Positions 11,557 through 21,292 of a DNA stretch of 21,292 bases are shown piece by piece. The notes below the pieces were generated by a model. The model was given only the letters and a program-made list of their open reading frames with translations, made no database searches and was not told where the DNA came from. How positions within the stretch are numbered: the first letter of the stretch is position 1; the number at the start of each line of letters is the position of its first letter. Made by a program: the position numbers and the translations under genes. Location: UHGV virus genome UHGV-0273766; one strand, 5' to 3'. The DNA is from a virus.

Positions 11557-12033
11557 TCATTTTGCGCGCTTCAGGCAGCCATCTTCAGGTGCCGCGTTGA
11601 AAAGCTCTGCGGCCTTACGTAGCGTAAATGTTGCGATTTTTTTTCCGTCTACGTATGCATCGAATGTTTTAACTTCCATATCAGGGGTATCTGACCAAAA
11701 ACCATACCAGTAACTATCACCCACAGAGGAACCGATAGAACTGATAGGATATTCATCATCACCAACTTTCAGCGTTATTTGTTCTTTTTTAGCATCAAAT
11801 GACTCACCGCCAGGTTCTGTTTTCATGAGAGTGAGTAGTCGTGTTCCTACTTGATTGGGATCCGTATTATTAAATCCAACATCGCACTCAAATGTAAGCG
11901 TATAATTATCTTTGCTGGAAACAGCATAAGAACGAACACCATGAGTCTCGCCGGTTGACCATTTGCTTACATTTGCCATTGATGAAAATGGAGTAAGCAA
12001 AGCAAGAATTAGAAAAAATCGTTTGATGCGCAT
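11557..12033 (-). CDS. Secreted or periplasmic small protein (158 aa) with N-terminal signal peptide; AT-rich gene
   Basis: N-terminus MRIKRFFLILALLTPFSSMA is a classical Sec signal peptide; gene and flanking intergenic regions look AT-rich by eye (not computed); two Cys in the mature part. Confidence 0.6.
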   Translation of the reverse strand: MRIKRFFLILALLTPFSSMANVSKWSTGETHGVRSYAVSSKDNYTLTFECDVGFNNTDPNQVGTRLLTLMKTEPGGESFDAKKEQITLKVGDDEYPISSIGSSVGDSYWYGFWSDTPDMEVKTFDAYVDGKKIATFTLRKAAELFNAAPEDGCLKRAK

Positions 12034-12094
12034 TAATTTATCTCCTTTGGATATTAACGATTATCAATATTTTAATTGGTTATCCATAATATAT

Positions 12095-12742
12095 TTACCA
12101 TTCATAGGGTAAATTAAGCGCTTTTAAACCTTGCTGGAAGGTATTAAGTGAACCGTTCTTTTGTTGTTCCATTTGTTCGCGTGCCGCTTTCTCATACTGC
12201 TCCATCCGTTGGTTATACTCTTGCAATTCCTCTGGTGAGAGGTTTCCCATTGGGGAGTTTGTACCCGGCCCCCTGGCCCGCTCTTCAAGTGTACCCTGCA
12301 CGTTTTGATGGCGCATTCCTGGGGCATTTCTGATTGAGTCAATGCCATTTCTTCCAACGTCTTCTTTATTAACGGCATTGCTCGCCACCAGCACACCCCA
12401 GCTAGGAATAGCAAAATCAGGAGCGGTTTCGCATGCCTTTACCATATAATCGAAAGTGCTTCGATTGATCTCATTTGCATCGGGGTTTAATAGGCGAGAA
12501 TATTGGTATTTAGCATTTGCGTTGGTTGAGACTTTATACAGTTCCTGCTGCACCATCGCTTCAGAAAGTTTAAGGCGCTTCATATCTGACAGTAACTTCT
12601 TGCGCATGGATTCGTCTTCACTGACAGCAAATCCGTAAACGTGCCCAAGGTATTTCGTATAATCGGTACAAATCTCCTTTACGCTTGATGCTGCATTAAC
12701 AGTCCCAGCCATAAATAATAACGGTAGTAATAGTTTTCTCAT
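12095..12742 (-). CDS. Secreted protein (215 aa from the second ATG), candidate superinfection-exclusion (P1 Sim-like) protein
   Basis: Signal peptide MRKLLLPLLFMAGTVNA with GGTGAGG Shine-Dalgarno upstream of the internal ATG (the ORF track starts 9 codons earlier at 12769). C-terminal segment NAPGMRHQNVQGTLEERARGPGT is shared with the Sit-like protein. Confidence 0.6.
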   Translation of the reverse strand: MRKLLLPLLFMAGTVNAASSVKEICTDYTKYLGHVYGFAVSEDESMRKKLLSDMKRLKLSEAMVQQELYKVSTNANAKYQYSRLLNPDANEINRSTFDYMVKACETAPDFAIPSWGVLVASNAVNKEDVGRNGIDSIRNAPGMRHQNVQGTLEERARGPGTNSPMGNLSPEELQEYNQRMEQYEKAAREQMEQQKNGSLNTFQQGLKALNLPYEW

Positions 12743-12838
12743 TATAACCTCACCTGCCTTATAACTCATTTAGGGTACATATTTTCGCCTTTAAAAAAAA
12801 GAGGTTATTAGATCCAATTGTGCATTTATTAAACAAAC

Positions 12839-12855
12839 AATGCTCTAATAAATTT
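12839..12855 (+). promoter_or_regulatory. P1-type C1 repressor operator (Op51-like)
   Basis: AATGCTCTAATAAATTT matches 16 of 17 positions of the P1 C1 operator consensus ATTGCTCTAATAAATTT (recalled from the literature). Confidence 0.6.
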
Positions 12856-13019
12856 GTATTTTTAAGTCACGAATGCTATCTTTTCGCATCATATTGACCT
12901 TTTAATCGTTCAGGCTTATAGTTCCGCCGTCGTAGCAAATTCTGCGACCGGGTTTAGCAGCCTGAATGTTAGTGCGGACAACCGCAGATATCCGATATTG
13001 CGGTATTTTTGTGTCCGTA

Positions 13020-13110
13020 AAACCGCGTTACGCCCAAATTATGGTGGGGCGTGATGGGGAGGCTTCGGCCTGCTGGTTTCACTAACGCCAGTCTGCTAAC
13101 CCCGTCACGT
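13020..13110 (+). ncRNA. Putative c4-like antisense repressor RNA region (boundaries approximate)
   Basis: Between the operator and the icd-like ORF. Elements CACTAAC (13080-13086) and CTGCTAA (13093-13099) are complementary to GTTAGTG (13152-13158, overlapping the Shine-Dalgarno of the icd-like ORF) and TTAGCAG (13123-13129). Contains a GGC-TTCG-GCC hairpin. Confidence 0.35.
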
Positions 13111-13169
13111 CCTGCCACCTGTTTAGCAGCGGGTAGCAGGTTGTTAAACCTGTTAGTGAGGCCGTAACT

Positions 13170-13391
13170 ATGGTTAATGCCAATCCTTGCGCACGCCAAG
13201 AATTCATCTGGCGTTTCTATTCCTGTAAAAAACACCACTATCACTTCGTTATCGCAGCAACAGAAGACGAAGCACGCTCTCAATTGCCTGATGGCCCCTG
13301 CATTTTTACTGCCCGTTTTTCAACTAACTCGCGCAATTCACTTAGTTACTGGAGCCTCCCCTTCTCTGCCGACGTTCAGGGGGGTTTATGA
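13170..13391 (+). CDS. icd: Icd-like small protein (73 aa), translationally coupled to the antirepressor
   Basis: GAGG about 8 nt upstream of the ATG; its stop overlaps the antirepressor ATG (ATGA). Size and position match P1 icd as I recall it. Confidence 0.45.
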   Translation: MVNANPCARQEFIWRFYSCKKHHYHFVIAATEDEARSQLPDGPCIFTARFSTNSRNSLSYWSLPFSADVQGGL

Positions 13392-14422
13392 AAACACCTC
13401 TCGTCACCCGTAATGAAATAGCCGAAGCGATCGCCTTGCATACAATCTGTATGCCGACACGGGAGATCCCCGGCGCAATTGCCAACTATTTCATGATAAC
13501 CAGGCGTTTTTATACCCGAACAGATAAGGCTGTGATCAACAGGCTACTGATAGCCGAGATCAGGGATTATTTGATTGAACAAGGACGTCTACGTTACGCA
13601 ACAGTGGCAGCAGAAATGAGAAAGGAGGCACATAGAATGACCGGTAATAATTTAAATGTTGAAAAACCAGCACCTGTTGCTTCAGCTACGCCAGCACCAG
13701 CCCTGAATGTCATCCCCAACACCGGAGACACAATCGACAGCCAAACATTGTTGAAGATGGTCAATGAGGCACGGAAATTATGTAGCGAAAAACCAGTTCG
13801 CAACAATGATTTCATTGCCAGAGTTAAGGATGAGCTTGAAGGAGAAACCTACGAAATTTTCGTAGGTCAAAAAAACGGCGCAGAAATAGATATTATAACC
13901 ATGACCTACAAACAAGCCCTGCGAGTTGCCGCGCGCGAGTCAAAAGCGGTCCGCCGTTCGCTGATCGACAAACTGGAAGAATTACAGCAGGCAAACTCCC
14001 CTACCCCATCGATCCCCCAAACATTACCAGAAGCCCTACGCCTGGCTGCCGAGTTGGCAGAACAGAAAATGCATCTGGAACAACAGCTGGTGGCCGCAGC
14101 ACCTAAAGTCGATTTTGCCGACCGGGTATCAGTGGCTAATGGAATCCTGATCGGTAACTTTGCAAAGGTCGTTGGACTTAAGCAAAACGCCCTTTTCTCA
14201 TGGTTGCGCCAGAACGGCATTCTCATGGCTTTTGGTGCGCGCAAAAACGTACCGCGCCAGCAGTACATTAACGCCGGGTATTTCACGGTGAAAGAAGTGG
14301 TGCTGGATGATGAAAATGGCTATCAGATACGGCTGACGCCACAATTAACGGGTAAAGGCCAGCAGTGGTTAACTCGCAAGCTACTTGATGCTGGTTTGTT
14401 AAAACCAGTAGCAATAGGTTAA
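13388..14422 (+). CDS. ant: Phage antirepressor with C-terminal KilAC/ANT domain (344 aa)
   Basis: C-terminal LPEALRLAAELAEQK...APKVDFADRV...ILIGNFAKVVG...QQYINAGYFTVKE...TGKGQQWLTRKLLDAG matches the KilA-C/ANT family by eye; G-rich Shine-Dalgarno; followed by a terminator. Confidence 0.75.
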   Translation: MKTPLVTRNEIAEAIALHTICMPTREIPGAIANYFMITRRFYTRTDKAVINRLLIAEIRDYLIEQGRLRYATVAAEMRKEAHRMTGNNLNVEKPAPVASATPAPALNVIPNTGDTIDSQTLLKMVNEARKLCSEKPVRNNDFIARVKDELEGETYEIFVGQKNGAEIDIITMTYKQALRVAARESKAVRRSLIDKLEELQQANSPTPSIPQTLPEALRLAAELAEQKMHLEQQLVAAAPKVDFADRVSVANGILIGNFAKVVGLKQNALFSWLRQNGILMAFGARKNVPRQQYINAGYFTVKEVVLDDENGYQIRLTPQLTGKGQQWLTRKLLDAGLLKPVAIG

Positions 14423-16558: not shown

Positions 16559-16738
16559 TACAATCGTTGCGGGTGCTTGAGGCTATCTGCTTCAGGTATT
16601 ACCCGAAAAGCAGATAGAAGAAAGCCCCAGATAACATTACGCGTCCTGCAAGACGCTTAACATTAATCTGAGGCTCAATCTATGAACGGCAAATCTAGGT
16701 TAGCCTCTTACGTGCCGAAAGGCAAGGAGAAGCAGGCT

Positions 16739-16894
16739 ATGAAGCAGCAAAAGGCGATGTTAATCGCCCTGATCGTCATCTGTTTAACCGTCATAGTGAC
16801 GGCACTGGTAACGAGGAAAGACCTCTGCGAGTTACGAATCCGAACCGGCCAGACGGAGGTCGCTGTCTTCACAGTTTACGAACCTGAGGAGTAA
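16739..16894 (+). CDS. hok: Hok/Gef family type I toxin (51 aa), HokD/RelF-like
   Basis: MKQQKAMLIALIVICLTVIVTALVTRKDLCELRIRTGQTEVAVFTVYEPEE is a canonical Hok/Gef sequence; AAGGAGA Shine-Dalgarno; in-frame upstream extension from 16682 (Mok-like leader); GC-rich hairpin at 16903-16924 downstream. Confidence 0.85.
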   Translation: MKQQKAMLIALIVICLTVIVTALVTRKDLCELRIRTGQTEVAVFTVYEPEE

Positions 16895-16932: not shown

Positions 16933-17340
16933 GTGTCAGGCATCCTCAACGCACCCGCACGTAACCCGCTTCGGCGGGTTTTGTTTTTTCCTGGCATTCT
17001 GGTTTACAATTCGCACGCCAGCCTGAACAACTGGCACCTGCTGCGCCAGCAGAGACAACCGATGGCGCACGATACCAAATTACACAATTCTGATGATTCT
17101 GCCGTCTTTGCCAGCAGGCACGGGCGGCGTTCCCGCACTTTCAAATCTGACTGGTTCCAGCATCCCCCATGCACTGAAGAACAGGCCGAGTGGCTAATTC
17201 AGTGCTACCGCAGACACGGATACGAGATTAAGAAAGCCCTCAGCCTCGATTATCGTCACTGGATAATCTCCGTCAGGCTTCCTTACTCCGAACGATCACC
17301 GCGTCCGTCCCGCACATTCCAGCAACGCATCTGGAGGTAA
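16933..17340 (+). CDS. Hypothetical protein (up to 135 aa; start uncertain, possibly the internal ATG at 17062)
   Basis: ORF between hok and the DUF968 gene, in the position occupied by rem in the Qin prophage; no recognisable motif. Confidence 0.35.
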   Translation: MSGILNAPARNPLRRVLFFPGILVYNSHASLNNWHLLRQQRQPMAHDTKLHNSDDSAVFASRHGRRSRTFKSDWFQHPPCTEEQAEWLIQCYRRHGYEIKKALSLDYRHWIISVRLPYSERSPRPSRTFQQRIWR

Positions 17341-17341
17341 C

Positions 17342-18388
17342 GTGCGAGTATTACTTCGACCTGTTCTGGTACCGGAACTCGGGCTGGTGATCGTTAAGCC
17401 GGGCCGTGAATCCATGCCGGTATTCCACAATACCCGGGTACTGGTGGAGCCGGAACCGAAAAGCATGCGTAATCTGCCGTCCGGGGGCGTTCCTGCCGTT
17501 CGCCAGCCGCTGGTGGAAGACAAAACATTGCTGCCGTTTTTCAGTAACGCACGGGTGATTCGTGCTGCTGGTGGTGCTGGTGCATTGTCTGACTGGCTGT
17601 TGCGCCATATTAAATCCTGCCAGTGGCCACACGGCGATTATCATCACAGCGAAACCGTCATTCACCGTTATGGTACCGGCGCAATGGTGTTGTGCTGGCA
17701 CTGCGACAACCAGTTGCGTGACCAGACCTCCGAATCACTTGAGCAACTTGCTCACCAAAACTTGTCAGCATGGATGATTGACGTCATTCGTCACGCAATG
17801 AATGGCACACAGGAGCGGGAATTATCGCTGGCTGAATTATCTTGGTGGGCAACCATAAATAACGTAGCGGACGCACTACCGGAGACGGTATTACGTCGTT
17901 CGCTGGGATTGCGCGCGGAAAAAATTAGCTCAGTATACCGCGAGAGCGACATCGTGCCGGGAGAGCAGAGTGCCACCAGCATGCTGAAGCAGCGCACAAA
18001 AAATATTGCGCCGCTGCTTCACGCCCACCAGCAAAACCCGCCACAGGAAAAGACGGTGGTCAGCATTGCCGTTGAGCCGGAGTCTCCGGAATCTTTCATG
18101 AAACGACCTAAACGTCGCCGCTGGCTTAACGAGAAATACACGCGCTGGGTTAAGACACAGCCGTGTGCATGTTGTGGAAAGCCTGCTGATGATCCCCACC
18201 ACTTGATAGGCCACGGTCAGGGTGGAATGGGTACTAAAGCGCATGACCTCTTTGTGTTGCCTTTGTGCAGAAAACATCACGACGAGCTGCATGCGGATAC
18301 CGTGGCATTTGAAGAGAAGTATGGCTCCCAGCTGGAGCTGATATTTCGTTTTATCGATCGTGCGCTGGCAATAGGCGTGCTGGCCTGA
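17342..18388 (+). CDS. DUF968-family protein (YdfU-like) with C-terminal Cys/His HNH-like motif (348 aa; GTG start, uncertain)
   Basis: C-terminal CACCGK...DDPHHL...GGMGTKAHDLFVLPLCRKHHDELH is characteristic of DUF968 proteins found in lambdoid nin regions; order hok, small ORF, DUF968, Q mirrors the Qin prophage. Confidence 0.7.
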   Translation: MRVLLRPVLVPELGLVIVKPGRESMPVFHNTRVLVEPEPKSMRNLPSGGVPAVRQPLVEDKTLLPFFSNARVIRAAGGAGALSDWLLRHIKSCQWPHGDYHHSETVIHRYGTGAMVLCWHCDNQLRDQTSESLEQLAHQNLSAWMIDVIRHAMNGTQERELSLAELSWWATINNVADALPETVLRRSLGLRAEKISSVYRESDIVPGEQSATSMLKQRTKNIAPLLHAHQQNPPQEKTVVSIAVEPESPESFMKRPKRRRWLNEKYTRWVKTQPCACCGKPADDPHHLIGHGQGGMGTKAHDLFVLPLCRKHHDELHADTVAFEEKYGSQLELIFRFIDRALAIGVLA

Positions 18389-18405
18389 TTTTGTGGAGAA
18401 AGTTG

Positions 18406-18777
18406 ATGCGTGATATTCAAATGGTTCTTGAACGTTGGGGGGCATGGGTGGCAAATAATCACGAGGATGTGGAATGGTCATCTGTTGCTGCAGGTTTTAA
18501 GGGATTAATTCCTTCGAAAGTAAAATCCCGCCCGCAATGTAGCGATGACGATGGCCTGATCATTAGCTCTGCGATGACAGTTCTTAAGAAAAAGGAACCG
18601 TATCAATACGAATTACTGGAAATGTATTATGTGTATGGGGTTACATTACGGGTGTTGGGGGTAAAACTGGGGATATCACTTAATCAGGTTGTTATCAGAC
18701 TGCAGAAAGCTGAAGGGTTTATTGACGGTTGTCTGGCAATGTTGGGGGTATCTTTAGAAATTGATTGTTACATATAG
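18406..18777 (+). CDS. Antitermination protein Q-like (phage 82-type Q family, 123 aa)
   Basis: N-terminus MRDIQMVLERWGAWVANNHEDVEWSS matches my recollection of short Q proteins annotated in E. coli prophages; GGAG about 7 nt upstream; followed by an AT-rich intergenic region as expected for a late promoter and qut site. Confidence 0.65.
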   Translation: MRDIQMVLERWGAWVANNHEDVEWSSVAAGFKGLIPSKVKSRPQCSDDDGLIISSAMTVLKKKEPYQYELLEMYYVYGVTLRVLGVKLGISLNQVVIRLQKAEGFIDGCLAMLGVSLEIDCYI

Positions 18778-18852
18778 TAATAAATTCAATCAAAGTAAAT
18801 AATCATATTTTATTATAACCTCCTGATGATACCTGTTCATTGGGAGGTTATT

Positions 18853-19470
18853 ATGGATAAAAATGTAGAGCATGTATTAGTTGATGCAATTGAAAATAAG
18901 CAATCTTTAACAGTCGTTTACTTAGGAGGGAGCCAGCCCGGAACATTAAGGAATATTTCTCCGATTAGTATAAATGGGGATAAATTGCGGGCAAGATGCC
19001 ATAGTTCTGGAGCAGTAAAGGTTTTCAATCTTGGGAAAATACAGTTACCCAGTGACTCCTGCGCGGTATCTATGCACTATGGAGATTTAGAAGTTAAAGC
19101 TTATGAGACGATGCAGAGCGTAAATGACAACTTTCATGCCCTTTATCCTGAAGGACGATGGGGTGTTGATTTTAATGAGCATCGCTTTGCTTTATTTGAT
19201 TTTTTTAAAAACGGGAAACGAAAAAAAACGGCATTTATGGCAATTGAGTTCAGGGAAAGAGATGAAGAGAAAATAATAACAGGTGTAACAATTGATATTG
19301 GTATATCTGGAACAGTGATTTCTGAGAAGTCCCGAATCCCAAAAAGACGACCATGGGTAGTGGTTGGTCCCGAACACGGAGAATACAGTACTTATTCAAC
19401 TTTGGACAAGGCTGCTACAGCGTTTTTTGAGAGGCTTTCGTTGATAGCATCCGGCCTGGAAGATAATTGA
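18853..19470 (+). CDS. Hypothetical protein (205 aa), AT-rich moron immediately downstream of Q; possible WYL-like N-terminal domain
   Basis: GGGAGG Shine-Dalgarno 5 nt before the ATG; AT-rich by eye; N-terminal pattern VVYLGG...R.ISPISI....LRARCH.....KVFNLGKI resembles WYL/Sm-like folds; followed by a rho-independent terminator. Confidence 0.6.
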   Translation: MDKNVEHVLVDAIENKQSLTVVYLGGSQPGTLRNISPISINGDKLRARCHSSGAVKVFNLGKIQLPSDSCAVSMHYGDLEVKAYETMQSVNDNFHALYPEGRWGVDFNEHRFALFDFFKNGKRKKTAFMAIEFRERDEEKIITGVTIDIGISGTVISEKSRIPKRRPWVVVGPEHGEYSTYSTLDKAATAFFERLSLIASGLEDN

Positions 19471-19600
19471 TTTTATGTTTGGTATTCAGAGTTCGCCGTG
19501 CTTAAGAAAGTCAAGATTCTAAAAATACTGAATGAGCTACTTGTGTTATAACAAAAATGCTATTAGTGTGTTAAGAGTGGTTACTTCGCCACACAACTTA

Positions 19601-19626
19601 AACCCGCCACTGAGCGGGTTTTTTGT
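19601..19626 (+). terminator. Rho-independent terminator downstream of the moron
   Basis: Stem AACCCGC / GCGGGTT (7 bp), loop CACTGA, followed by a T-run. Confidence 0.75.
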
Positions 19627-19746
19627 ACCTGTAAACTTGGTGCAGTACAGTAAACACGCTGGTGGTCGTGAATACTGACTTTTTATCTTGCTGGCTTTTT
19701 AGACAAGAGTTATTGGTATGTCATGTTAACCAGAAGGGAAAAAGAC

Positions 19747-19944
19747 ATGCTAAAACAGCAAGATATGACCGAAACCGCCAGAGTGGTGTTTAATGAATTG
19801 AGCGTCACCGAACCGGCGACAGTCGGGGAGATTGCGCAGAATACTTACCTTTCACGCGAACGCTGCCAGTTAATACTGACCCAGCTGGTTATGGCGGGTC
19901 TGGCAGACTATCAGTTCGGTTGTTACAGACGCCTTCCGCAGTGA
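19747..19944 (+). CDS. Small hypothetical protein (65 aa), possible winged-helix DNA-binding protein
   Basis: AAGGGA about 9 nt upstream of the second ATG; TVGEIAQNTYLSRERCQLILTQLVMAGLA resembles a recognition helix / wing; a terminator hairpin overlaps its stop codon. Confidence 0.4.
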   Translation: MLKQQDMTETARVVFNELSVTEPATVGEIAQNTYLSRERCQLILTQLVMAGLADYQFGCYRRLPQ

Positions 19945-19957
19945 AGGCTTTTTTATT
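19931..19957 (+). terminator. Rho-independent terminator overlapping the stop of the small ORF
   Basis: Stem GCCTTC / GAAGGC, loop CGCAGT, followed by TTTTTTATTT. Confidence 0.65.
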
Positions 19958-20094
19958 TGTGGTAAATGGGCGGCTGGTGGGTGTTAGGGGCACCCACCAG
20001 CCATCTGCTCATGCGTTGGGTTCACAAGCAAACCTCAGGCCCACTGCTTTGCGCAAAAGCAGAATGAGCCTATCAGAGACAGGCTTAATGATCC

Positions 20095-21144
20095 ATGCTT
20101 AATACTGTAAAAATATCCAGTTGTGAGTTAATCAACGCCGACTGCCTGGAATTTATCCGGTCGTTACCCGAAAATTCTGTTGACCTGATAGTCACGGACC
20201 CGCCGTACTTTAAAGTGAAGCCTGAGGGCTGGGATAACCAGTGGAAGGGCGACGATGATTACCTGAAGTGGCTGGACCAGTGTCTGGCGCAGTTCTGGCG
20301 GGTGCTGAAACCTGCCGGAAGTCTTTACCTGTTCTGTGGTCATCGCCTGGCATCTGATATCGAAATCATGATGCGTGAACGCTTCAGTGTGCTGAACCAT
20401 ATTATCTGGGCGAAGCCGTCCGGACGCTGGAACGGATGCAACAAGGAAAGCCTGCGGGCGTATTTCCCCGCCACAGAGCGCATTCTGTTCGCGGAACATT
20501 ATCAGGGGCCGTATCGTCCGAAAGATGCCGGGTATGCGGCGAAGGGCAGTGCACTGAAACAGCATGTGATGGCCCCGCTGATTTCTTACTTTCGTGATGC
20601 GCGCGCGGCCCTGGGGATAACGGCAAAACAGATTGCAGATGCCACAGGAAAGAAAAACATGGTGTCGCACTGGTTCAGTGCCAGTCAGTGGCAGCTACCG
20701 AACGAAAGCGATTATCTGAAATTACAGTCGCTGTTTGCCCGGGTGGCAGAAGAGAAACATCAGCGCGGTGAACTGGAAAAGCCCCACCACCAGCTGGTGG
20801 ATACGTATACGTCACTGAACCGGCAGTATGTGGAGCTGCAGAGTGAATATAAGCATCTGCGGCGGTATTTTGGTGTGACGGCGCAGGTGCCGTACACGGA
20901 TGTGTGGACACATAAACCGGTGCAGTTCTATCCCGGGAAACATCCGTGCGAAAAACCGGCAGAAATGCTGCAGCAGATAATCAGCGCAAGCAGTCGTCCG
21001 GGTGACCTGGTTGCAGATTTTTTTATGGGCTCAGGTTCAACGGTAAAAGCGGCACTGGCGCTCGGGCGTCGTGCGATTGGCGTTGAGCTGGAGACCGGAC
21101 GTTTTGAGCAGACAGTCAGGGAAGTTCAGGATTTAATCGTTTGA
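20095..21144 (+). CDS. Orphan DNA methyltransferase, beta-class amino-methyltransferase (N6-adenine or N4-cytosine), 349 aa
   Basis: Motif IV TDPPY near the N-terminus and motif I FFMGSGST near the C-terminus (beta-class order); no restriction endonuclease gene adjacent. Confidence 0.85.
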   Translation: MLNTVKISSCELINADCLEFIRSLPENSVDLIVTDPPYFKVKPEGWDNQWKGDDDYLKWLDQCLAQFWRVLKPAGSLYLFCGHRLASDIEIMMRERFSVLNHIIWAKPSGRWNGCNKESLRAYFPATERILFAEHYQGPYRPKDAGYAAKGSALKQHVMAPLISYFRDARAALGITAKQIADATGKKNMVSHWFSASQWQLPNESDYLKLQSLFARVAEEKHQRGELEKPHHQLVDTYTSLNRQYVELQSEYKHLRRYFGVTAQVPYTDVWTHKPVQFYPGKHPCEKPAEMLQQIISASSRPGDLVADFFMGSGSTVKAALALGRRAIGVELETGRFEQTVREVQDLIV

Positions 21145-21193
21145 AACGGATGAGATTGCAGAATTAATTACGCACCATTATTATTCTGCTCCC

Positions 21194-21269
21194 GGCCCTT
21201 TAGCTCAGTGGTGAGAGCGAGCGACTCATAATCGCCAGGTCGCTGGTTCAAATCCAGCAAGGGCCACCA
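21194..21269 (+). tRNA. tRNA with anticodon CAT, tRNA-Ile2-like (lysidine type) or tRNA-Met; CCA encoded
   Basis: 7-bp acceptor stem GGCCCTT/AAGGGCC, D-arm AGCTCAGTGG, anticodon loop CTCATAA, T-arm GGTTCAAATCC, discriminator A plus CCA. Closely resembles E. coli ileX/ileY-type tRNA from memory. Confidence 0.85.
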
Positions 21270-21292
21270 TCACATACCGCCATTAGCTCATC

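Follow-up and report, generated by a model that had tools for sequence, protein, structure and literature searches.

A c4 antisense RNA gene of the P1/P7 immI type with P1-like b and P7-like a recognition elements

Co-transcription of an antisense RNA with its target was first shown for the c4 RNA of phages P1 and P7, which is also a natural RNase P substrate that is not a tRNA. The operon transcript is reportedly processed with release of c4, which binds the a2 and b2 targets and blocks the translation of icd. Without icd translation, ant is said to be neither translated, on account of translational coupling, nor fully transcribed, on account of Rho-dependent termination; C1 thereby stays active, and lysogeny and immunity are kept. 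In P1/P7 work, c4 provided in trans from a plasmid reportedly represses an icd'-lacZ fusion that carries a2 and b2 only. In the published literature, C4 is described as an antisense RNA that is needed for the full repression of ant (PMC8198154), the P1/P7 C4 precursor is given as an RNase P substrate in the part of PMC2190699 that refers to Hartmann et al. 1995, and differences in immI underlie the heteroimmunity of P1 and P7 (PMC6906374). The curated P1 record lists Oc4, P2c4, P1c4, a1, b1, a c4 misc_RNA, a2, b2, icd, ant1/ant2 and kilA, and calls the role of a1/b1 only 'putative', while the P7 record labels c4 an 'antisense RNA acting on targets icd and ant transcribed from the same promoter'.

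The same elements follow each other in the same order and with the same spacing in the window, i.e. the whole 21,292-nt stretch of DNA analysed here (UHGV virus genome UHGV-0273766). Judged by its sequence, the region 13020-13172 holds the c4 gene of a P1/P7-type plasmid prophage, a part of the immI immunity operon. The Rfam C4 model RF01695 matches 13037-13122 on the (+) strand over its full length (1-87/87) with 70.0 bits against a gathering threshold of 45, and the c4-a1b1 model RF03163 matches the upstream leader, also over its full length, with 55.5 bits against a threshold of 46.7. In a megablast comparison of the 12780-13420 segment to phage genomes, the identities were 96.6% with P1, 98.1% with P7 and 98.3% with RCS47. 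Coordinates of the immI features in the window (Table 1) were obtained by transferring the P1 annotation through the alignment. The operon layout together with Icd, Ant1, kilA and repL, all as in P1, indicates that the window derives from a P1/P7-type plasmid prophage. An earlier note on this DNA, written from the letters alone, had proposed a 'c4-like' RNA that follows the logic of the P1/P7 c4 repressor upstream of a coupled icd-ant unit. The proposal is supported, the locus being orthologous to the annotated P1 and P7 c4; the family was named correctly, but the RNA is c4 itself, with three differences from P1 and two from P7. The note had also placed the RNA at 13020-13172, a span which contains the RNA, although the RNA itself occupies 13043-13119 only. 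Every C4-family feature that can be tested from sequence (covariance-model match, fold, downstream targets, upstream duplicate targets, tandem layout and covariation) was found; the window c4 is an already known regulator, rediscovered from raw sequence.

Table 1 Features of the immI control region and of the neighbouring cargo in the window.
Feature	Position	Strand	Basis
C1 repressor operator Oc4 (former Op51), AATGCTCTAATAAATTT	12839-12855	+	17/17 identical to annotated P1 operator
Promoter P2c4 (former P51a), -35 TTTGTAT, -10 TATCTT	12853-12882	+	Both signals identical to P1 annotation
Promoter P1c4 (former P51b), TTGACC-17-TATAGT	12894-12922	+	Identical to P1 annotation
c4-a1b1 structured leader with upstream target sites	12916-12968	+	Rfam RF03163
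a1 target TTAGCAG (P7-type allele)	12954-12960	+	Exact reverse complement of a'; at annotated a1 of P1; covaries with a'
b1 target GTTAGTG(C) (P1-type allele)	12968-12975	+	Exact 7-nt complement of b' (12968-12974); at annotated b1 of P1; covaries
c4 antisense RNA, mature 77-nt form	13043-13119	+	Homology with P1 misc_RNA 48343-48419; Rfam RF01695; fold
b' recognition element UCACUAAC (P1-type allele), 9-nt loop of second hairpin	13079-13086	+	Unpaired in MFE and centroid folds; allele comparison
a' recognition element CUGCUAA (P7-type allele), single-stranded joint	13093-13099	+	Unpaired in fold; allele comparison
a2 target TTAGCAG, icd leader, 4 nt past the c4 3' end	13123-13129	+	Exact complement; annotated a2 of P1
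b2 target GTTAGTGA, runs into icd Shine-Dalgarno	13152-13159	+	Exact complement; annotated b2 of P1
icd, 73-aa cell-division inhibitor ORF, predicted c4-blocked frame	13170-13391	+	70/73 identical to P1 Icd, 72/73 to P7 Icd
ant1 antirepressor, 344 aa	13388-14422	+	Pfam ANT/KilAC PF03374, 1.3e-30; 314/347 identical to P1 Ant1, 324/348 to P7 Ant1
DUF968/HNH protein	17342-18388
Antiterminator Q	18391-18777
N6/N4 DNA methylase	20095-21144
tRNA-Met(CAT)	21194-21269

The operator and all four promoter hexamers are the same as in P1. P2c4 overlaps the C1 operator, which implies that this promoter is controlled by C1, and P1c4 was also picked up independently, with 10/12 matches, by a scan for the sigma-70 consensus. 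The Shine-Dalgarno sequence of icd, GAGG, lies at 13158-13161, 8 nt upstream of the ATG at 13170, and the start codon of ant1 overlaps the icd stop codon in an ATGA (13388-13391, overlap TTTATGAAAA), an arrangement that points to translational coupling of the two frames. Downstream of ant1, kilA (266 aa, with KilA-N and ANT domains) and repL (281 aa) follow as in P1. Pfam searches returned no match for Icd or RepL, the identities of which rest on the P1/P7 annotation, and a scan for terminator and promoter signals found no intrinsic terminator 3' of c4.

Upstream of immI, simABC are present in P1 and upf50.0/upf50.5 in P7, whereas the window carries two other minus-strand ORFs (224 aa and 158 aa, within 11557-12769) with hydrophobic N-termini, which are 'hypothetical' in RefSeq; a Pfam search of both gave a single match, below threshold. 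Directly after repL stands a hok/sok module, composed of a sok RNA (RF01794, 117 bits) at 16571-16744 and a Hok/Gef-family ORF (PF01848) within 16682-16894. The best matches to P1-like plasmids end at about 16956, and 16957-21292 carries cargo of lambdoid type.

The earlier note drew attention to four 7-mers, and all four are exact at the positions it gave: CACTAAC (13080-13086) is the reverse complement of GTTAGTG (13152-13158), which indeed overlaps the Shine-Dalgarno sequence of the 73-aa ORF, and CTGCTAA (13093-13099) is that of TTAGCAG (13123-13129). With 13079-13086 opposite 13152-13159, the b duplex reaches 8 Watson-Crick pairs, to which 2 G-U pairs through the GAGG are added. With cognate targets the b duplex is predicted at -11.7 kcal/mol and the a duplex at -9.0 kcal/mol; non-cognate duplexes are weaker. 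The note had missed a second pair of targets with the same complements (TTAGCAG at 12954-12960 and GTTAGTG at 12968-12974), as well as the two promoters and the C1 operator, i.e. the elements lying within 12839-12975. Elements as short as seven nucleotides could be chance features of an untranslated leader that contains no RNA regulator, with hairpins that are likewise accidental, and in dinucleotide-preserving shuffles of the flanks (20000 trials) at least one downstream complement did occur in 1858/20000 trials (about 9%). Both downstream complements were present, however, in only 29/20000 trials, both upstream complements in 1/20000 and all four in 0/20000. Together with the covariance-model match above the curated threshold and the perfect compensatory covariation in 115 loci (see below), these counts leave coincidence with a negligible probability.

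The predicted fold of the 78 nt at 13041-13118 has an energy of -45.4 kcal/mol against a shuffle mean of -27.3 (z -5.4), and its MFE and centroid structures are the same. Within an 18-bp closing helix it comprises a GGCC/UUCG hairpin followed by another hairpin, the 9-nt loop of which holds b', and then a 7-nt single-stranded joint that corresponds to a'; this architecture is that of the Rfam C4 consensus. The 77-nt RNA is identical to that of P1 at 74/77 and to that of P7 at 75/77 positions, and the closing helix and the 3' CCACC are the same in all three. When the whole leader (12900-13200) is folded, the c4 structure is kept in the MFE fold, and the short hairpins that had been anticipated between the targets are predicted there as well.

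A pattern scan of IMG/VR, in which the c4 backbone was fixed and the two recognition elements were left free, gave 120 loci. These, together with the window, P1 and P7, provided 115 loci with complete flanks, and in 115/115 the locus's own a' and b' have exact reverse complements both upstream (a1, b1) and downstream (a2, b2). Seven b' alleles (CACTAAC, CACAATC, CGTAAGT, CATTCGT, CATGTAC, CACAAGT and CTTGAAC) and two a' alleles (CTGCTAA and CTGTCAA) occur in 12 a'/b' combinations. Phage D6 joins this backbone to CGUAAGU and CUGUCAA, yet another pair. Base counts are equal across the columns of b1, b' and b2 and likewise across those of a1, a' and a2. In the aligned 285-bp region much of the variation falls at the six elements, the other variable columns being found at about 12900-12927 and scattered elsewhere. 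The complementarity noted in the window is thus conserved, through compensatory changes, in all 115 complete loci, the opposite of the lack of conservation that the earlier note had listed among the refuting observations. Moreover, the fact that a1/b1 covary as strictly as a2/b2 implies that a1/b1 are under the same pairing constraint, and through the natural allele series the two-contact pairing model, a1/b1 included, is proved by covariation with unusual clarity. No two of the seven b' alleles differ by a single nucleotide (Hamming distance minimum 2, maximum 5), with nearly identical backbones around them. A search of species-representative genomes with the Icd protein recovered 4 loci only, too few for covariation. 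One of the four, in a contig from an uncultured Phycisphaerae MAG (L127, 1501-1611), is a weak 46% match to residues 11-48 of Icd, which is probably spurious or else a very distant relative.

The same data bear on the historical view of c4 as a small protein repressor, encoded by an overlapping short ORF such as 13051-13167 (38 aa) or 12966-13085 (39 aa). Such ORFs are present in the region, and the old GenBank entry X15639 still marks c4 as a CDS. Against this, the variation of c4 is concentrated in the loop and the joint, and each change there has a complementary counterpart at non-coding sites at most about 130 nt away. RNA pairing would be expected to leave such a pattern, a peptide would not; in the current P1 and P7 records c4 is a misc_RNA or antisense RNA, in accordance with its description in PMC8198154. 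A protein repressor is therefore extremely improbable. Classical opposite-strand antisense RNA was also considered and rejected: c4 and its four targets all lie on the (+) strand at separate places, and the complementarity is limited to blocks of 7-8 nt. The term 'cis-encoded antisense' used in the earlier note is consequently imprecise: the RNA is encoded on the same strand and in the same operon as its target and not opposite to it.

A second scan, free of the bias introduced by the fixed backbone, uncovered a divergent branch with CCGG in place of CCAG in the hairpin (68 non-redundant loci), in which the loop sequences are nearly unique. The loop and the joint both have 7-mer complements within 150 nt downstream in 43/68 of these loci, where 1.3 would be expected from flanks swapped between loci, and both have upstream complements in 35 of 68 (1.1 expected from the same swaps). 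Rfam C4 matches of 55.8-73 bits were obtained in 11/15 loci sampled from the divergent scan as a whole, a sample not restricted to the 68. These counts argue that the two-contact logic and the upstream duplicate targets are common to the whole C4 family. One divergent C4 locus (L137, 4963-5197) lies about 1.3 kb downstream of matches to a type II hammerhead ribozyme (RF02276, 53 bits) and to the Proteo-phage-1 RNA (RF03044, 43 bits).

Intact pairing is not universal, as the b2 of one 4.9-kb contig (L043, IMGVR_UViG_2565956613_000015) is non-cognate: its b' is CATTCGT and its b2 is the P1-type GTTAGTG, while a' and a2 match. This locus has no upstream flank and hence stands outside the 115 complete loci. 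Either recombination in nature produced it, in which case the b contact is predicted to be lost, or two co-resident elements were joined in the assembly.

The reading that very probably accounts for the locus is that of an immI control region, in which c4 is cut out of the operon transcript, pairs with the icd leader, blocks icd and ant1 and so keeps lysogeny; no feature of the sequence speaks against it. We propose that transcription would start at the constitutive P1c4 and, once C1 repression is lifted, also at P2c4, and that the transcript would span a1/b1, c4, a2/b2, icd and ant1/2. The c4 segment, folded in a tRNA-like manner with the 18-bp closing helix and the two inner hairpins, would be excised as the 77-nt RNA, its 5' end being generated by RNase P as in P1 and P7. 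The b' loop could then pair with b2, into the Shine-Dalgarno sequence, and the a' joint with a2, which by analogy would block icd translation. Through the translational coupling of ant1 to icd, synthesis of the antirepressor would be blocked too, and in consequence C1 would stay active, lysogeny would persist, and any superinfecting phage that carries the same a/b sequences would be checked. For this copy, the processing to the 77-nt RNA, the repression of Icd and Ant, the type-specific superinfection immunity and the downstream termination of transcription are all predicted from the work on P1 and P7.

A variant of this scheme would have a' and b' act mainly in cis, within the unprocessed transcript, by pairing with a1/b1 or a2/b2 as a leader riboregulator, the free 77-nt RNA being secondary. 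It draws on the presence of all six elements on one transcript, with a2 only 4 nt past the 3' end of c4, on the 'putative' status of a1/b1 in the P1 annotation and on the covariation of a1/b1, which is as strict as that of a2/b2. However, genetic work defined c4 as an immunity function that is diffusible and sets P1 apart from P7 (PMC6906374), and an RNase P substrate, as its precursor is called in the relevant part of PMC2190699, implies the release of a discrete RNA. The MFE fold of the whole leader, moreover, closes c4 on itself and not on its flanks. Three IMG/VR contigs carry two c4-icd modules each (L017/L052, L055/L063 and L014/L076), and the b' alleles differ in 3/3 of them, in line with what one would expect of trans-acting RNAs that must not cross-react. 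In these contigs, every copy with complete flanks is accompanied by all four targets that match its own elements; for L017, which has no upstream flank, the check covers the downstream targets only. A purely cis-acting leader structure may apply to a1/b1 but is unlikely as the main mode, and we give this variant as a whole only a small chance beside the trans-acting, excised c4.

In each of the six elements P1 and P7 are 2 nt apart, and the window sides with neither throughout: b1, b' and b2 are of the P1 type, while a1, a' and a2 are of the P7 type. The P1 immI specificity type (a' CUGUCAA with a1/a2 UUGACAG; b' CACUAAC with b1/b2 GUUAGUG) is matched in the b elements, with 2 nt different in each a element; conversely, the P7 type (a' CUGCUAA with a1/a2 UUAGCAG; b' CACAAUC with b1/b2 GAUUGUG) is matched in the a elements, with 2 nt different in each b element. 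Among the 20 sites in 12841-13169 that are informative for P1 versus P7, 13 are P7-type and 7 are P1-type in the window, and the P1-type patches in the P7-like backbone lie at 12969-12981, 13083-13085 and 13153-13155. An origin by a simple crossover of P1 and P7 was rejected: three separate P1-type patches would require at least 6 breakpoints relative to those genomes, and the window is thus not a single-crossover recombinant of the two. The P1-b/P7-a combination is recurrent, being found in 10/115 complete loci (the window and 9 IMG/VR loci).

The mixed alleles imply that the window c4 would make one of the two full contacts with the targets of either phage. On P1 targets the full b contact is predicted to be kept and the a contact to fall to -6.7 kcal/mol; on P7 targets the full a contact would be kept and b would fall to -4.9 kcal/mol. 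The P1-b/P7-a type may accordingly represent a distinct or a partly cross-reactive immunity specificity. We tentatively suggest, as a possibility that we hold at somewhat under even chances, that the window exemplifies a third immI specificity among the natural combinations, no fewer than 12 (from 7 b' and 2 a' alleles), that circulate on near-identical backbones in P1-like phage-plasmids. The specificity would reside in three dispersed 6-7-nt patches that change together; with the distance of at least 2 nt between b' alleles and the differing b' alleles of the contigs with two modules, this would amount to an 'immunity barcode', combinatorial and diversifying, which governs the P1-like elements that can repress each other's antirepressor. 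If this were true, the window type would be partly cross-reactive with both P1 and P7, through one full contact each. The literature that could be searched in full text yielded no description of c4 allele diversity beyond P1 versus P7 and no experimental characterisation of the P1-b/P7-a combination; the combinatorial allele diversity may already be known.

The region is by no means confined to the window. The 281 bp at 12900-13180 are 100% identical in about 20 PLSDB plasmids from E. coli, E. albertii, E. fergusonii and Salmonella, and identity to the region is 99% or more in 17 records from complete E. coli genomes. Homologs were found in 575 PLSDB plasmids and in 537/5426 complete E. coli genomes (about 10%), in the latter at 666 places, 656 of which are on plasmids. 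Routine annotation leaves c4 unmarked, though P1-like plasmids with homologs often carry resistance genes: the RefSeq record of p1303_95 (NZ_CP009168.1), the immI control region of which is 100% identical, has no c4 RNA feature, only the CDSs of the Icd-like protein and the antirepressor. Allele combinations could be used to type the immunity groups of P1-like phage-plasmids and to predict co-residence versus exclusion.

Compared to its closest described relatives, the window shares with P1 the operon layout, the operator, the promoters, the 77-nt RNA and its fold, the b'/b1/b2 sequences, icd and the coupled ant1. It differs from P1 in the a elements (CUGCUAA and UUAGCAG against CUGUCAA and UUGACAG), in stem position 13103, where a C makes a G-C pair in place of the G-U pair of P1, and in the replacement of the upstream sim genes by other ORFs. 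With P7 it shares the backbone (13/20 informative sites) and the a'/a1/a2 sequences, and it differs in the b elements (CACUAAC and GUUAGUG against CACAAUC and GAUUGUG) and in the first two bases of the operator, which match P1 and not P7. In ColE1 RNA I and R1 CopA, as in c4, short unpaired loops set the specificity of RNA-RNA recognition, and a few base changes create a new specificity that does not cross-react. RNA I and CopA are transcribed opposite their targets, so that one mutation alters both partners, whereas c4 and its four targets lie on one strand at separate places and each change of specificity needs matching changes at three dispersed sites.
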